From positions 75,364-139,363 of the forward strand of contig CAZMAW010000002.1 in assembly GCA_964564495.1 (NCBI GenBank): a DNA stretch of 64,000 nt, written 5' to 3'. Shown here in pieces: positions 2,097-63,320 of the stretch. Within the stretch, counting starts at the first letter, position 1. Every line of letters begins with the position of its first letter. Under the pieces are notes generated by a model that saw only the letters and a list, made by a program, of their open reading frames with translations, searched no databases and was not told where the DNA came from. A program made the translations under genes and the position numbers. This stretch comes from an uncultured Candidatus Nemicrothrix sp. GTDB lineage: Bacteria > Actinomycetota > Acidimicrobiia > Acidimicrobiales > UBA8592.

Positions 2097-2139
2097 AGCG
2101 ACTCTGGTTTAGCTCAAAACGCAATAAAAGGATGTGCAA

Positions 2140-2496
2140 ATGGCAAATGTAACGATCTATCACAACCCACATTGAGGTTCTTCACGAAACGCCTTGGCGG
2201 TCGCTGAGGAAATGGGTGTAGAACACAACGTCGTGCTGTACATAAAAGAGCCACCAGATGAGAAAACCCTCCAGAAAATTGTCGATGGTCTTGAAGACTC
2301 TGTTGAAGACTTAGTCAGAAAGGACTCTTTGTTCAAAAAACTGGAATTAAATCCGGAGGATTATGTGGATAATCCAGACAATGTTGTACAGATCCTTGTC
2401 AAGCACAAGCAGCTGCTCCAAAGGCCCGTGATTGTCAGGGGGAATAAAGCAATTGTGGGTCGCCCCAAGGATCGAATAGCTTCGTTTCTATCCTAA
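2140..2496 (+). CDS. arsC: ArsC-family arsenate reductase with in-frame UGA at the catalytic Cys12 position (probable selenoprotein, 118 aa)
   Basis: SD AAGGA 2128-2132, ATG 2140. MANVTIYHNPH-[TGA 2173-2175]-GSSRNAL continues in frame into the track ORF 2194..2496. R60, R95 (QRP) and R108 (GRP) match the ArsC arginines. Confidence 0.85.
2176..2211 (+). promoter_or_regulatory. candidate bacterial SECIS stem-loop immediately 3' of the UGA
   Basis: TTCTTCA (2178-2184) pairs with TGAGGAA (2205-2211, one G-U), CGA with TCG, and CGC with GCG closing a CTTG loop at 2193-2196, 18-21 nt after the UGA; folded by eye. Confidence 0.55.
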
Positions 2497-9129: not shown

Positions 9130-9182
9130 GCCTCAGAACCTATCCTTTCTTCTAGTGGTTGCAAATAACTGTGGGAAATAAT

Positions 9183-10382
9183 ATGAAGATTGAGCTTACT
9201 GACTGGTTGAGTGTCAAGGAGGCCTTTCGGTCGAAACACCTCCGGCAAGCGGGTTATACAGAAGGTGCAATTGTCATGGAAGGGACTCTTCTTGATCTGC
9301 ATGGGTTGGAGCATCGTGAACGACGCCGGTTAGAGAACCGGTTGTTTAGGCGAGAAATATTCAGCTATTGGGAACATCAGGTTCTAGGGAGGACGATTGA
9401 TGCGACCATACGGCCATTTGTGGAAAAGAGAAGGGGTGACCTTGCACAAATTGGATATCGATGTGCAATGAACTTGACGGCGACGATCGCAGGAATAGAC
9501 CAAGATCCCCGGAATGAGACTGAAACAGAGTTGCTGTACTCAAAGGTGAAAAAGTTTAGTGAGGGAGCAACCATAATGCATTCGACTCGAGACAAAGATG
9601 AAGTACGGTCTGAAGTAAAGGAAGCAATGACTTCGTTTCACAATGACTTTTACATACCATCGAAGACTCGACGTGAGGATGTTCTCTCAGATTTTATAGA
9701 TGGCAAAATATCTGAAGAAGAGTTGCCACGAGATGTTCTCACCACGCTTTTACGTAATGCCGAGGTGCTGATGCTTGACGACGATGTCGTTTTTCGCGAG
9801 ATCTGTTTTTACCTGCAAGCTGGCGCTCATTCAACTGCTAATGCTTTTACCCACACAGTCGATGATTTGTTTTCTTGGGGAGAAAAACATCCAAATGATT
9901 TAGATCTCGCTAGGAAAGACCTCTCGTTTGTTCAGAGATGTATGCACGAGTCTCTTCGGCTAAGTCCTGCAAGCCCCGTTGCCCTCCGTACACCTCTTGA
10001 GGACGTTGAATTATCAGACGGGACATTGTTGCCCCAGGGGGCGCATGTGGTTCTGAATTTGATCGAAGCAAATAGAGATCCATTAATTTTTGGTAGTTCA
10101 GCTGATGTTTTTGACCCGCATCGTAATGTACCTGATGGGGTTGCACGCTGGGGTATGAGTTTTGGTGCTGGGTCGCATGCTTGCGTCGGTGCAGAACTTG
10201 ATGGAGGTCTAGAAGTAGATCATGAACGACCTAATGAAGAAGCTTTATATGGAACTGTAGCGATCATGGTGCATGCTTTGCTCTCCGCAGGAGGGGCGAA
10301 AGATCCACACAATCCGCCCGTATTGGATCCTAATTCAGAAAGGAAACACTTCAGTAGTTATCCAGTCCAGTTTCTAAGTTGA
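9183..10382 (+). CDS. divergent cytochrome P450 (I-helix AGAHST)
   Basis: HRERRRL, HESLR, FGAGSHACVG; ATG 9183 (alternative TTG 9159). Confidence 0.88.
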   Translation: MKIELTDWLSVKEAFRSKHLRQAGYTEGAIVMEGTLLDLHGLEHRERRRLENRLFRREIFSYWEHQVLGRTIDATIRPFVEKRRGDLAQIGYRCAMNLTATIAGIDQDPRNETETELLYSKVKKFSEGATIMHSTRDKDEVRSEVKEAMTSFHNDFYIPSKTRREDVLSDFIDGKISEEELPRDVLTTLLRNAEVLMLDDDVVFREICFYLQAGAHSTANAFTHTVDDLFSWGEKHPNDLDLARKDLSFVQRCMHESLRLSPASPVALRTPLEDVELSDGTLLPQGAHVVLNLIEANRDPLIFGSSADVFDPHRNVPDGVARWGMSFGAGSHACVGAELDGGLEVDHERPNEEALYGTVAIMVHALLSAGGAKDPHNPPVLDPNSERKHFSSYPVQFLS

Positions 10383-10431: not shown

Positions 10432-11634
10432 ATGGCAGAAATCCTAATAACAAAACCCGATGATGCTCGTGAGTGCTATCGACATAAAAGCCTCAAGCAA
10501 GCCCTTTACGATGATGGTGAAGTAGTTATGGGAGATGCGATTATCAATTTACACGCAGACGAGCATCGTCAGAGAAGAAGACTAGAAAACCGCCTATTTC
10601 GCCGGGATACTTTCTTTGCCTACGAAAGAGAATTATTCCCATCCATTATTGAAGAGACTGTCCGCCCCTATCTAGATGAAGGGAGAGCTGAACTGGTTGA
10701 TTTCGGACACCAGCTGATGATGAATCTTGCTGCGGCAACTGCTGGCGTCGACCGACCTGACGGTACCGCTGAAGAAACATTTCGACTCTACGCATACATG
10801 ATGAATTTTATAGAGGCTGCGACCTTGGGTTTTTTCACCGGTGACAAAGACGCTAAACGACAGGAAATACAGGAAGCCATGGAAGCTTTCGATGCAGAAT
10901 TTCTAGAAGACGGGATTGCCCGTCGGAAAGGGTTGCTAGCGAACTTCGAAGCAGGAGAAATTGAGGAGGCAGATCTTCCGAAAGACGTTTTGATGGTTTT
11001 GTTGCGAAATCAAGACAAGATACCAATGAATAGGGAATCTTTAAGGCGCGAGATAGCCTTTTATCTTCTCGCTGGTGCCCACACCTCTGCAACAGCGTTT
11101 AATAGGGTCATTCACAATATTTTTAAATGGATAGAAGAACATCCAGAAGATATTGATCGTGCATATAACGATCGCTTGTTTCTTCAGCGATCTACACATG
11201 AAAGCATCCGACTGCAACCATCTTCCCCAACTGCTGCCCGTTGGGCTTTGGAAGATATAGATCTTAAATCAGGTATAAAAATAAGGGAGGGGGACCGTGT
11301 CGTGATTGACTTAGAGGCTGTGAACAGAGATAAGGAATTGTTTGGCGAAGATGCCGAAAAATTCAATCCTGATCGGGAATTACCAGATGGCGTAGCTCCT
11401 TGGGGTCTAAGTTTCGGCCAAGGAATGCATGCATGTATTGGACAGGACTTAGCAGTGGGGTTGGCCTTCTCCCCAGATAAAATTGTTGAAGACCATTTGT
11501 TTGGTTTAGTGCCAGTAGCGGTACAGACGATGTTCCTTAATGGCTGTCAGCCTGATCCCGAAAATCCACCGGAGATGGACGATTCAACGACAAGGCCTTA
11601 TTTTGGAAAGTACCCTGTCATTTTCGTAAGTTAA
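10432..11634 (+). CDS. divergent cytochrome P450 (I-helix AGAHTS), paralogue of 9183
   Basis: HRQRRRLENRLFRR shared with the neighbour, HESIR, FGQGMHACIG. Confidence 0.88.
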   Translation: MAEILITKPDDARECYRHKSLKQALYDDGEVVMGDAIINLHADEHRQRRRLENRLFRRDTFFAYERELFPSIIEETVRPYLDEGRAELVDFGHQLMMNLAAATAGVDRPDGTAEETFRLYAYMMNFIEAATLGFFTGDKDAKRQEIQEAMEAFDAEFLEDGIARRKGLLANFEAGEIEEADLPKDVLMVLLRNQDKIPMNRESLRREIAFYLLAGAHTSATAFNRVIHNIFKWIEEHPEDIDRAYNDRLFLQRSTHESIRLQPSSPTAARWALEDIDLKSGIKIREGDRVVIDLEAVNRDKELFGEDAEKFNPDRELPDGVAPWGLSFGQGMHACIGQDLAVGLAFSPDKIVEDHLFGLVPVAVQTMFLNGCQPDPENPPEMDDSTTRPYFGKYPVIFVS

Positions 11635-26773: not shown

Positions 26774-28039
26774 ATGACGAGGATAGGAGAAGTCATGGAA
26801 ACTATAAGGGACATGGAACCACCCCCCCACATTGTCGGAATTCAACATTTTGTTGACTACGAATCGGTAGACGAAATTCTTAAATCTAAAGACTTCCGCC
26901 AAGGTTCACACCAGGAAAGTCAACCTTTCTTTGGAGACTCTCTCCTAACCATTGACCATGGTGATCATTTCGATCGGAGGAGGCTTGAGGCTCCACTCTT
27001 TCGGAAGGAAGCTTTGGAATATTATGAACGTGAAGAATTGCTCCCGTTGATAGCGAGATCTCTTGAAGAATGTGAACAGAATCGCGGGCAGGATGGTTTA
27101 GTAAGGGCAGATCTCTGTCTCCTAGTACGGAATATGTTGGCCCGAATCTCCGCAGTTACGACAGGCATAGACGGTGTTGACACACCTGAGCGCACCGATG
27201 CTTTCAGGATGTATGTTGAGCAATTAGGGACAGGTGCGACTGTGGAATGGTCAACGGAAGACCATGATGAGGTGATCGATCGAATTCTTGCTATCCGAGA
27301 GGGGTTTGTTAATGAATTCTATGGCCCTTCTGTAGAGCGCCGGCGTAAACTGATCTCGAAGTTTCAAGCAGGTGACATATCAGAGGAGGACCTCCCCCAT
27401 GATTTGTTAACTCTTATGTACCTTCACTGGAATGACGACTGGGATGACGAGCTGCCCTTACGGGAAGCGACCTTATACACAGTTGCCTCGAGTCAGACGA
27501 CAACTCATGCGGTCCCACACATGATGATGCATCTTCATGAATGGTTTGAAGCACATCCTGAAGATTATGAAAAAAGATTCGATCGAGAGTTCCTAAAACG
27601 CGCTGGACATGAAGCAATTCGGCTTCATCTGCCCTCCCCAGCTTTACTGAGAATAGCCCTTAAGGACGTCACTTTGAGTAGCGGGATTGAGATAGCTGAA
27701 GGGGAACGTGTCGCATGTTTATTCACTCCGGCGAATCGTGACATTTCCGTCTTCGGAGATGATGCAAAGTCTTTTGACCCCTATCGTGAAGTTGCCGATG
27801 TGAAACCTTGGGGATTCGCTTTTGGAGGGGGAGAACATACATGCATTGGTCGTACATTGGTAACAGGACTTTCCGCAAGAACTGACGGTGATGAAGGAAC
27901 AGATGGTACTTTGGTCAATATTGCCCTCGCACTTTTCGAAGCTGGATTAGAACTCGATCCAGAAGACTGGCCGGCATTTACCGAGCTCAGTTATCACGAT
28001 GCTTATGGTAGCTTCCCAGTAATTTTAAGAAGTCTTTAG
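26774..28039 (+). CDS. divergent cytochrome P450 (I-helix ASSQTT), same family as 9183/10432
   Basis: HFDRRRLEAPLFR, HEAIR, FGGGEHTCIG; alternative start 26795. Confidence 0.88.
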   Translation: MTRIGEVMETIRDMEPPPHIVGIQHFVDYESVDEILKSKDFRQGSHQESQPFFGDSLLTIDHGDHFDRRRLEAPLFRKEALEYYEREELLPLIARSLEECEQNRGQDGLVRADLCLLVRNMLARISAVTTGIDGVDTPERTDAFRMYVEQLGTGATVEWSTEDHDEVIDRILAIREGFVNEFYGPSVERRRKLISKFQAGDISEEDLPHDLLTLMYLHWNDDWDDELPLREATLYTVASSQTTTHAVPHMMMHLHEWFEAHPEDYEKRFDREFLKRAGHEAIRLHLPSPALLRIALKDVTLSSGIEIAEGERVACLFTPANRDISVFGDDAKSFDPYREVADVKPWGFAFGGGEHTCIGRTLVTGLSARTDGDEGTDGTLVNIALALFEAGLELDPEDWPAFTELSYHDAYGSFPVILRSL

Positions 28040-31539: not shown

Positions 31540-32262
31540 ATGTCTAATAATGCAGACCACGACGTCCTTGGTAGCGCTGCTCTTGCATCGCGGGAAGTTG
31601 CAGCAAAGTCGCACAAATTCGCAGAGGGGTACGCACGTGTCCGTGAAGTGACGGACCTTGACGGGGCTTGCCCCGCTTGGGCAAAAGCTCTTTTTATGTC
31701 CTGTGCGGCTGCAGTAAGAGGCCATGAAGAGCTTATGCTAAGGGAGCTGGGCCGTTCGAAAGATCTAGGGCTATCGCTAAATGATGCCCGCGGGGCAGCC
31801 TTAACTGTTTTTATAAGTAGAGGTGAAGGTGTATATAGCAAGTTTACATCTGCAATTAACGAATTTTATGGTGAGGAAATCGGACAGCCTGATGAAGACT
31901 CTCCAGCATTTCAATTGGATAAAGACGCTTGCTTGGAATACTTTGAAGGTTATTTTGGCTTCATACCAACCTACGTTCAGCTCATGGCCGAGGAAGCTCC
32001 TAGAGCCCTTGAGGGGTATGTGCTTATGAGAGAGTTCTCTTTAGCGGAGAATTTACTTGATGCTAAAAATGTCGAATTGCTTCTCTGCACAGTTAATGCA
32101 GCTGAATTTTCATCCAGATTCACAAATGTGCATGCGAACGGGGCTAGAAATGCTGGAGCTACAGAAGCTGAAATCGTTGAAGCGGTAATTTGTGCCTTGC
32201 CTGTTTCCGGAGTTGCGTCTTGGCTGCCCGGTGCGGACGGAATTATGGAAGGTCGCAGCTAG
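31540..32262 (+). CDS. two-domain carboxymuconolactone decarboxylase/AhpD-like protein
   Basis: two CMD-like helical units (KALF...H...GLS; LDAKNVELL...H...GATEAEIVE); no CxxC. Confidence 0.7.
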   Translation: MSNNADHDVLGSAALASREVAAKSHKFAEGYARVREVTDLDGACPAWAKALFMSCAAAVRGHEELMLRELGRSKDLGLSLNDARGAALTVFISRGEGVYSKFTSAINEFYGEEIGQPDEDSPAFQLDKDACLEYFEGYFGFIPTYVQLMAEEAPRALEGYVLMREFSLAENLLDAKNVELLLCTVNAAEFSSRFTNVHANGARNAGATEAEIVEAVICALPVSGVASWLPGADGIMEGRS

Positions 32263-62024: not shown

Positions 62025-63320
62025 ATGACTACAGGAACAACAGAAGAAAAACTAGACGCTTTAATTGACCGTGACCAAGAAGCTATTGGATGTCCATATC
62101 CGATATTTTCTGCGTTACGTGATGAAAGTCCAATTCACTTCAGTGACAAACTCGGGACATGGGTCTGCACTCGATATGAAGACATCATGGAAATCCTTCA
62201 CGATACAGATCGTTTCTCATCACAAATGCCGACGGGCCCAGTTGATGGACGAGGAGGATTCGCCAGTGCGATGGAAGAATTGGCTGCTGATCCCAGTATG
62301 GAAGAATATTTTCAGAGCTTTTTGGCAAACGCAGCAAACGCAGCTGTTCTCTTGAATGCTGATCCTCCGGATCATCGGCGTCAACGTAAAGCAGTAAATA
62401 GGGCATTTAGGCCCACGCGCCTTCGCGGCATGGAACCAATGATTCAAGAAGTAACGAAAAACCTGCTCGACGAGATCGTTGATAATGGGGAATCGGAATT
62501 TGTTGCTGAATTTGCGGTAGGGCTTCCCATGACAATCATCGCAGTTGCCTTGGGAGTTGAAACCGACGATCTTGGAACATTTAAGAAATGGTCAGATGAT
62601 TTGGTTATGCCTGTCGGCAATTCAAATCCCACAACGGAAAAGGTCCGCGACTATCTAGTTTCGCTCGCTCAATTTAATAGTTTCTTCGGTGATCTCCTTG
62701 AGTTACGAAGAGAGGAAGCACAGGAAGACATTATTTCCGATGTAGCAAACGCTGAAGTAAACGATGAAATGCTGAATGAAGCTGAAATGCTTTCTATGCT
62801 TCAGCAGTTTCTCGTTGCAGGCAATGAAACTACGACGAAGCTCATTACAAATTTGATGCACCACCTTGCCGTTGAAGACGGGCTCGAGGAAAAACTCAGA
62901 GATGAGCCGGAGCTTATAGATAATTTCATCGAGGAGGGGCTTCGGTTCGAAGCACCAGTTGGCGGACTCTTTCGAATGGCGAAAGAGGATACCGTAGTCG
63001 GTGGAACCGAGTTGCGGGAAGGTGACCATATCTGGCTTATCTTTGCCGCTGCAAATCGAGATCCCGAAATGTTTCCTAAACCTGATGAATTTTCGGTCGA
63101 CCGTGAAAATGCGCGTGACCATCTAGCCTTTGGACATGGCGAACATTTCTGTATCGGAGCGACTCTAGCTCGGTTGGAAGCTCGAATCGCTGTGGAACAG
63201 ATCCTTCACCGAATGGAGAATATTCGACTCATTGAGGATAAAAATAACTTTGAGTATGAAGACACATTCGTCCTTCGTGGACTGAAGGAACTCCATGTAG
63301 CATTTGATGTCCGTGAGTAA
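62025..63320 (+). CDS. cytochrome P450 (canonical type)
   Basis: VAGNETTT, EEGLR, FGHGEHFCIG. Confidence 0.95.
   Translation: MTTGTTEEKLDALIDRDQEAIGCPYPIFSALRDESPIHFSDKLGTWVCTRYEDIMEILHDTDRFSSQMPTGPVDGRGGFASAMEELAADPSMEEYFQSFLANAANAAVLLNADPPDHRRQRKAVNRAFRPTRLRGMEPMIQEVTKNLLDEIVDNGESEFVAEFAVGLPMTIIAVALGVETDDLGTFKKWSDDLVMPVGNSNPTTEKVRDYLVSLAQFNSFFGDLLELRREEAQEDIISDVANAEVNDEMLNEAEMLSMLQQFLVAGNETTTKLITNLMHHLAVEDGLEEKLRDEPELIDNFIEEGLRFEAPVGGLFRMAKEDTVVGGTELREGDHIWLIFAAANRDPEMFPKPDEFSVDRENARDHLAFGHGEHFCIGATLARLEARIAVEQILHRMENIRLIEDKNNFEYEDTFVLRGLKELHVAFDVRE

Follow-up and report, generated by a model that had tools for sequence, protein, structure and literature searches.

An ArsC-family reductase gene of marine Acidimicrobiales with a conserved in-frame UGA, very probably encoding selenocysteine, at the catalytic cysteine position

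Arsenate reductase selenoproteins with a UxxS motif were first known from anonymous marine reads. Fourteen such sequences, accompanied by predicted SECIS elements, were described from the Sargasso Sea (Zhang, Fomenko & Gladyshev 2005, PMC1088965), and 77 Sec sequences of pfam03960 with the UxxS motif were subsequently reported from the GOS data (Zhang & Gladyshev 2008, PMC2398784). The UxxS ArsC family is listed in reviews of 2022 (PMC9312934) and 2026 (PMC13188914), the more recent of which states that the functions of such selenoproteins remain uncharacterised. The gene described here belongs to this published marine family, designated 'arsenate reductase (ArsC) 1, UxxS'. The first-pass annotation of the locus, which was made from the DNA letters alone, had noted that Sec-containing ArsC-like proteins occur in marine metagenome surveys, a statement that the two survey papers bear out, and had called the gene a hidden selenoprotein. 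The latter description stands insofar as gene callers miss the gene, but not with regard to the family. Because papers have described the UxxS family from 2005 onwards, the present result is the correction of an annotation and not a discovery.

The stretch of DNA that was analysed, hereafter the window, is 64,000 nt long; all positions are numbered on it, and the gene lies on its + strand (Table 1). The frame at 2140-2496 reads MANVTIYHNPH, a TGA, and then GSSRNALAVAEE..., and remains open up to a terminal TAA. Around codon 12 the DNA is CAC AAC CCA CAT TGA GGT TCT TCA CGA AAC. A mechanical ORF list begins the ORF at the TTG at 2194, giving a product of 100 aa, and public gene calls begin either there or at the ATG at 2212 (94 aa). 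The Shine-Dalgarno sequence with its ATG at 2140, the listed start at 2194 and the in-frame TGA at codon 12 had all been pointed out in the first-pass annotation and are confirmed by the sequence.

Table 1. Positions, in window coordinates, of the elements of the ArsC-family gene and of representative P450 genes
Feature	Position	Strand	Basis or remark
Shine-Dalgarno AAAGGA	2127..2132	+	7-nt spacer to ATG 2140; GGAG/AGGA-like motif equally spaced in many close relatives
Full CDS, predicted Sec-containing ArsC-family protein, 118 aa, motif U-G-S-S	2140..2496	+	full-length frame kept in L001-L027
Start codon ATG	2140..2142	+	ATG in 26 relatives, GTG in one
UGA codon 12, probably read as Sec	2173..2175	+	TGA in 27/27 relatives; Cys in L028-L030; aligns with R773 ArsC Cys12 (1I9D/1JZW)
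Candidate SECIS apical hairpin, CCUUGGC / loop GGUC / GCUGAGG	2192..2209	+	fold, compensatory changes, frozen synonymous sites
TTG, false start of gene callers (Leu19 within SECIS stem)	2194..2196	+	TTA (non-start codon) in L006, L012, L018
ATG, false start of 94-aa public calls (Met25)	2212..2214	+	codon 25 = Leu in 13/20
Arg60 codon (R773 ArsC Arg60)	2317..2319	+	alignment; invariant 20/20
Arg95 codon (R773 ArsC Arg94)	2422..2424	+	alignment; invariant 20/20
Arg108 codon (R773 ArsC Arg107)	2461..2463	+	alignment; invariant 20/20
True stop TAA	2494..2496	+	TAA, TAG or TGA in relatives
P450 genes (examples)	169-1449, 9159-10382, 10432-11634, 26774-28039, 62025-63320		

Six assemblies made independently of each other (three from JGI, two from ENA and one from Logan) agree in every letter of the gene, the TGA included. 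The Logan contigs of four independent public runs also span it without a single letter difference, and in two further metagenomes that contain diverged strains, variants are scattered over the neighbouring genes with none between 2106 and 2249. Codon 12, which the first-pass annotation had singled out for checking, is TGA in the six assemblies and in the contigs of the four runs. A sequencing or assembly error at 2173-2175 has nothing in its favour except prior expectation and, against the identical assemblies from three sources, the contigs without letter differences and the unchanged stretch in the two divergent-strain runs, is vanishingly improbable. A scan of the window for further TGA-interrupted ORFs returned 47 mechanical candidates, none of which is gene-like except 2140-2496.

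Relatives of the gene were collected by scanning genomes, each species being represented by a single one, which gave 30 loci: L001-L027 at 45-88% identity and L028-L030 at 36-40%. Codon 12 is TGA in all 27 of the closer loci, well beyond what chance would give, with a conserved N-terminal peptide, MANVTIYHNP[H/N], running up to it. Their hosts are MAGs of Acidimicrobiaceae/Acidimicrobiales, Microthrix, Ilumatobacter and Actinomycetota, and also of Verrucomicrobiia and Akkermansiaceae. The in-frame UGA is thus conserved among orthologues (the 27 loci, and 29 full-length protein clusters in which it appears as W), and Cys homologues align at the UGA: R773 ArsC at its Cys12, the solved structure 3RDW, and the three most distant loci, from Phycisphaerae and Flavobacteriales, which carry Cys at the codon-12 column in the motif HNPRCSKSR. 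The alternation of Cys and UGA at this column that the first-pass annotation had named as a check is therefore found, with TGA in 27/27 relatives and Cys in L028-L030.

Protein-level conservation extends to both sides of the UGA. Across codons 1-11 the protein is conserved and the differences are mostly synonymous, such that Ala2 is encoded by four codons, Ile6 by three, and Tyr7 and His8 by both of theirs, while the DNA 5′ of the Shine-Dalgarno or ribosome-binding site is not conserved among relatives. This combination implies translation of the 11 codons that precede the TGA. Relatives end the gene with TAA, TAG or TGA, the last being used in 10 of 26, and codon 12 is invariably TGA. It would take a single base change (TGY to TGA) to kill an ArsC gene by converting its Cys codon, TGT or TGC, to a stop, and annotation pipelines do handle this gene as truncated. 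A dead gene, however, would not hold its TGA while the real stop drifts among three codons, and the TGA here is kept in 27/27 relatives over two phyla, with purifying selection on both flanks and frozen synonymous sites in the downstream hairpin. Nor is there any reason for which a mere nonsense codon should be TGA in every relative; a pseudogene is extremely improbable, and is already refuted by the comparative data.

The same alignments bear on the proposal that the true product is the 94-100-aa protein initiated at TTG 2194 or ATG 2212, which would have no catalytic loop, with the upstream codons forming a short leader ORF. Gene callers pick these two starts, and a GAGGA lies immediately 5′ of ATG 2212. 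Against this, the TTG is replaced by TTA in three relatives and Met25 by Leu in most, the 11 upstream codons match the N-terminal strand of ArsC and are conserved as protein, and the shortened product would be without its first beta-strand and its nucleophile. The lack of conservation of the internal starts rules out the truncated product as a conserved function, and we regard it as a very improbable account of the gene.

With regard to public databases, the best 120 homologue clusters include none with Cys at position 12; 91/120 are N-terminally truncated, beginning downstream of the TGA and measuring 94-107 aa, and 29/120 have W at position 12. The statement in the first-pass annotation that gene callers would miss the full gene is consistent with these counts and with the 94-100-aa calls made for the gene itself. 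Public ENA calls on short contigs, among them P0001-P0005, P0007 and P0014, use genetic code 4, by which Sec becomes Trp, and several of the code-4 products overrun the true TGA stop (…FLSWLRV…), a systematic artefact of the protein collection. Because some calls (P0003-P0005) run past the true TGA stop in this way, the Trp at position 12 is to be seen as a product of code 4. The listing of cluster members gave no accessions that tie the short NCBI contigs to GOS or Sargasso data.

A decoding of the UGA as something other than Sec would require either a genome in which UGA has been reassigned to Trp or Gly, or a SECIS/SelB-like system that delivers Cys. Recoding of the tRNA 'ReC' type, in which Cys is delivered at UGA, was reportedly described by Mukai and colleagues in 2016, and such delivery is known in few lineages only. 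The W at codon 12 in public ENA calls could be taken to favour reassignment, and the Sec machinery was not directly seen in the DNA that was searched. The W stems from code-4 gene calling, however, and TGA is an ordinary stop in the window, where it terminates 13/50 ORFs of at least 200 codons, as well as in 10/26 homologous genes, in agreement with the first-pass view that there is no genome-wide recoding. Moreover, codon 12 falls in the column of the catalytic Cys, and an enzyme with Trp or Gly there would be dead. Non-Sec decoding is therefore quite improbable.

Immediately downstream of the UGA, the coding sequence is predicted to fold into a hairpin, CCUUGGC-GGUC-GCUGAGG, whose 7-bp stem begins 19 nt past the U of UGA and whose loop occupies +27 to +30. 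A bacterial SECIS (bSECIS) is expected to be a stem-loop approximately 11-40 nt downstream of the UGA with a G in its apical loop, and the 7-bp stem and GGUC loop here lie at +20 to +37. The energy of the fold taken alone is unremarkable (z = -1.5, with 17/200 shuffles folding equally well), and Cys homologues likewise fold into hairpins. The support for the candidate SECIS comes from its evolution and not from its fold energy. Synonymous sites are frozen across codons 18-23, and in a comparison of the window gene with 19 relatives, the third base never varies in the four-fold-degenerate codons 18, 20 and 21 (Ala, Ala, Val), which holds for no other four-fold-degenerate codon of the gene; in the others the entropy at the third position is 1.1-2.0 bits. 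Within the stem, synonymous change is confined to TTG/TTA at codon 19 and GCC/GCT at codon 22, which affect mutually paired bases and give G-C, G-U and A-U pairs; with Y for the codon-22 base, the hairpin is CCUUGGC-GGUC-GCYGAGG. One stem pair is swapped from C-G to G-C in L021.

Distant Sec forms have other hairpins in the same place: CAAUGC-CGUGA-GCAUUG in those of Ilumatobacter/Microthrixaceae and GCGGCAC-UGGAC-GUGCUGC in L027. Owing to this shift of the stem in the distant clades, RNAalifold did not arrive at a single consensus for the full set of 25 Sec forms, and folds of individual sequences together with pair counts were used in its place. The pair counts gave four cells in which both sides had changed, a value reached by 3/500 shuffles. 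A search against Rfam returned no matches to the window at gathering thresholds, and 2100-2300 at E<=10 gave only chance matches to ToxI and v-snoRNA, so that the hairpin corresponds to no Rfam family. In runs X5 and X6, unitigs of 31-42 nt over the SECIS core (2187-2223) reach coverage of up to 146x, compared with ~7x in the flanks; a 33-nt core is so conserved across species that the metagenome shows separate unitigs for it. The loose ends in these two runs lead to further variants of ArsC, such as ...CATAATCCACATTGAAACTC... and ...AACCCCCATTGACACGCATCC..., each of which has the TGA. The SECIS core is common, at the nucleotide level, to many co-occurring species.

The proposal of Sec at position 12, made in the first-pass annotation, agrees with the conserved TGA at the catalytic Cys column, the Cys of distant homologues, the purifying selection on both flanks and the constrained hairpin. 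On these comparative grounds it is highly likely that UGA-12 encodes Sec, and there is strong reason to regard 2140-2496 as the gene for a 118-aa ArsC-family (thioredoxin-fold) reductase with a UGA-encoded Sec12 nucleophile in a UGSS, or 'UxxS', motif. Modelled on the E. coli paradigm, translation would begin at ATG 2140, and as the ribosome arrives at the UGA the hairpin in the coding sequence would serve as a bacterial SECIS. Its GGUC loop would be offered to SelB-GTP-Sec-tRNASec, so that Sec would be delivered instead of termination taking place, with the dependence on SelB presumed from the same paradigm. The Sec12 selenolate may then attack arsenate or a similar oxyanion, after which a thiol or redoxin partner would resolve the intermediate, the substrate and the reductant both being putative.

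The machinery for Sec insertion was looked for in the window, in ~17 kb past its two ends and in the related loci, which together amount to a few per cent of a genome; no selA, selB, selD or tRNA-Sec was found there. Specifically, tblastn with E. coli SelA, SelB and SelD (queries taken from NC_000913.3) gave zero matches to the window and related loci, and ARAGORN found zero tRNA, and hence zero tRNA-Sec, in the window and 34 loci. The genes selA/B/C/D are reported, in a 2026 preprint, from all complete genomes of Actinomarinales, like the present lineage members of Acidimicrobiia (bioRxiv 10.64898/2026.04.03.716425), and the main text of Peng et al. 2016 (PMC5029168) holds nothing specific to Acidimicrobiia. 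We infer that this genome has Sec machinery, the outside support being the class-level preprint on Actinomarinales.

The assignment of the product to the ArsC family was made with Cys substituted at position 12 of the 118-aa sequence. Pfam ArsC (PF03960) matches the whole product with E=8e-16, and the PF03960/COG1393 domain is accompanied by U12-G-S-S15, as in the ArsC 1 (UxxS) family. Among NCBIfam models, TIGR00014, arsenate reductase (glutaredoxin), matches best by a wide margin, and its score of 100.5 bits is a near miss of the equivalog cut-off of 106.05. The structures of R773 ArsC (1I9D/1JZW) align end to end with E=2e-17, placing position 12 on Cys12 and R60/R95/R108 on Arg60/94/107. 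Both the equivalence to Cys12 and the arginine triad had been recognised in the first-pass annotation, and both are seen in this alignment. The nucleophile at position 12 and the arginines, which are invariant in 20/20 sequences, are as in Grx-coupled ArsC, and because R60, R95 and R108, the oxyanion holders of R773 ArsC, are kept, the most likely chemistry would be attack by Sec12 on an arsenate-like oxyanion. The Spx/MgsR regulators were considered as an identity and rejected: the motif is UGSS with no CxxC, TIGR01617 reaches 50.9 where its cut-off is 75.05, and the scores of the Spx models are far under theirs.

Whether the substrate is arsenate is less certain than the decoding. That the enzyme reduces arsenate is somewhat favoured by the sequence comparisons. 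An alternative, which we consider possible but on balance unlikely, is a genuine selenoprotein that is not an arsenate reductase: a YfgD-like selenol reductase of the ArsC fold with another substrate or a general redox role. It would account for a solitary gene, since the ars operon context (arsR, arsB/ACR3) is absent and no arsB/ACR3/arsR neighbours were found in any of the four different contexts inspected, and also for the TIGR00014 score under the cut-off. In length the 118-aa product resembles the 121-residue 3RDW chain and is shorter than the 141-aa R773 enzyme, and the characterisation of such selenoproteins as functionally undescribed in review PMC13188914 points the same way. It is opposed by the retention of all three oxyanion-binding arginines and of the CxxS-type motif of Grx-coupled ArsC, and by the wide margin with which TIGR00014 is the best NCBIfam match. 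As regards the reductant, glutathione is usually absent from Actinobacteria.

In the window the gene is found among genes for CoaE, an inositol-phosphatase-family protein, a cold-shock protein and a P450, and the other contexts are equally unrelated to arsenic. Only close relatives share the arrangement CoaE, ArsC, inositol-phosphatase-family gene, cold-shock protein, and the neighbours in Verrucomicrobia are unrelated. The downstream inositol-phosphatase-family gene starts with ATG at 2505, 8 nt past the ArsC stop. One metatranscriptome contig spans 2350-2515, covering the 3′ part of ArsC, the stop and the first codons of the inositol-phosphatase-family gene, so the gene is expressed in situ; the contig also suggests that the two genes are co-transcribed.

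The window as a whole (1-64000) is a dense catabolic island with several cytochrome P450s accompanied by small ferredoxins, many acyl-CoA dehydrogenases, AMP-dependent CoA ligases, short-chain dehydrogenases, enoyl-CoA hydratases and thiolases, a Rieske oxygenase, CoA-transferases, ChsH2-like OB-fold proteins and a branched-chain-type ABC transporter. This gene content resembles a repertoire for the degradation of lipids, steroids or hydrocarbon side chains in a marine Acidimicrobiales genome, and the Pfam context around the window contains catabolic genes only. At 31540-32262 a 240-aa protein weakly matches PF02627, the carboxymuconolactone decarboxylase/AhpD-like family, which has some Sec-containing members in marine metagenomes; it is called at full length, and the scan for TGA-interrupted ORFs gave no candidate there. 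A Rieske oxygenase upstream of the window, called with 262 aa in one case and 452 aa in another, proved to be a calling difference only, the DNA being identical.

The actinobacterial host proposed in the first-pass annotation fits the closest genomes, which are marine Acidimicrobiaceae/Acidimicrobiales MAGs. Four loci from Verrucomicrobiia/Akkermansiaceae (L010, L013, L014 and L042) have 71-77% protein identity to the window gene and an identical GCCUUGGCGGUCGCCGAGG core, and these verrucomicrobial copies sit on large contigs among typical PVC-type neighbours. These observations suggest that the gene may have been horizontally transferred between phyla together with its SECIS. A bolder proposal, which we put forward tentatively and consider rather doubtful, is that the Sec clade, for which no Cys form and no link to an ars operon turned up, is a non-arsenic selenol-based reductase and/or a portable cassette exchanged between Acidimicrobiia and Verrucomicrobiota with an identical 19-nt SECIS core. 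Were the portable cassette real, unrelated SelB proteins would recognise its fdhF-like GGUC hairpin. The TGA in all recovered relatives with at least 45% identity also suggests that Sec may be preferable to Cys for the chemistry of this enzyme in seawater, one possibility being that the advantage of Sec lies in faster turnover at low seawater arsenate.

The current understanding of Sec decoding is unchanged by these results. What is added to the published family is the identity of host lineages, namely marine Acidimicrobiales and relatives plus Verrucomicrobiia; the occurrence of TGA in all recovered relatives with an identity of at least 45%, with Cys in none of the best 120 clusters; the description of a GGUC loop like that of fdhF; and the finding that public databases mis-annotate the family almost throughout. 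A UxxS family that was first seen in reads of anonymous origin is now tied to abundant marine Acidimicrobiales and Verrucomicrobiia, lineages that by implication maintain Sec machinery. The correct annotation of the gene is 2140-2496 with a transl_except for Sec at 2173-2175.

Among described SECIS elements, that of E. coli fdhF (sequence extracted from NC_000913.3) resembles the candidate hairpin in being located inside the coding sequence right after the UGA, with an apical GGUC tetraloop and a G-C-rich closing stem. The two differ in that the fdhF loop lies at +22 to +25, so that the loop here is 5 nt farther from the UGA, and in that the predicted fold of fdhF has an unpaired U in the upper stem, in contrast to 7 continuous base pairs in the hairpin predicted here.

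With regard to the protein, R773 ArsC has the same fold, an N-terminal motif MSNITIYHNPACGTSRN that corresponds to MANVTIYHNPHUGSSRN, its nucleophile at position 12, and an arginine triad equivalent to R60/95/108. It differs in having Cys in place of the predicted Sec and a C-terminal extension that is missing here, and the present gene differs from it in lying outside any ars operon and in scoring slightly below the TIGR00014 cut-off. The 'putative arsenate reductase' 3RDW is the best-scoring solved structure (E=5e-20), is of nearly the same length and shares the HNPxC/U..SR N-terminus, its HNPRCSKSR motif being that of L028-L030; it has Cys (in CSKSR) and not Sec, its identity is ~40%, and it is itself an uncharacterised short type. 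Spx/MgsR and the 'ArsC 2 / arsenate reductase-like' UxxC selenoproteins are also members of Pfam family PF03960, but have CxxC or UxxC where the present protein has UGSS without a second Cys. The 'ArsC 1' UxxS family combines a PF03960/COG1393/TIGR00014 domain, Sec at the catalytic Cys, a downstream SECIS and an origin in marine metagenomes, and from this family the gene at 2140-2496 shows no difference in kind.
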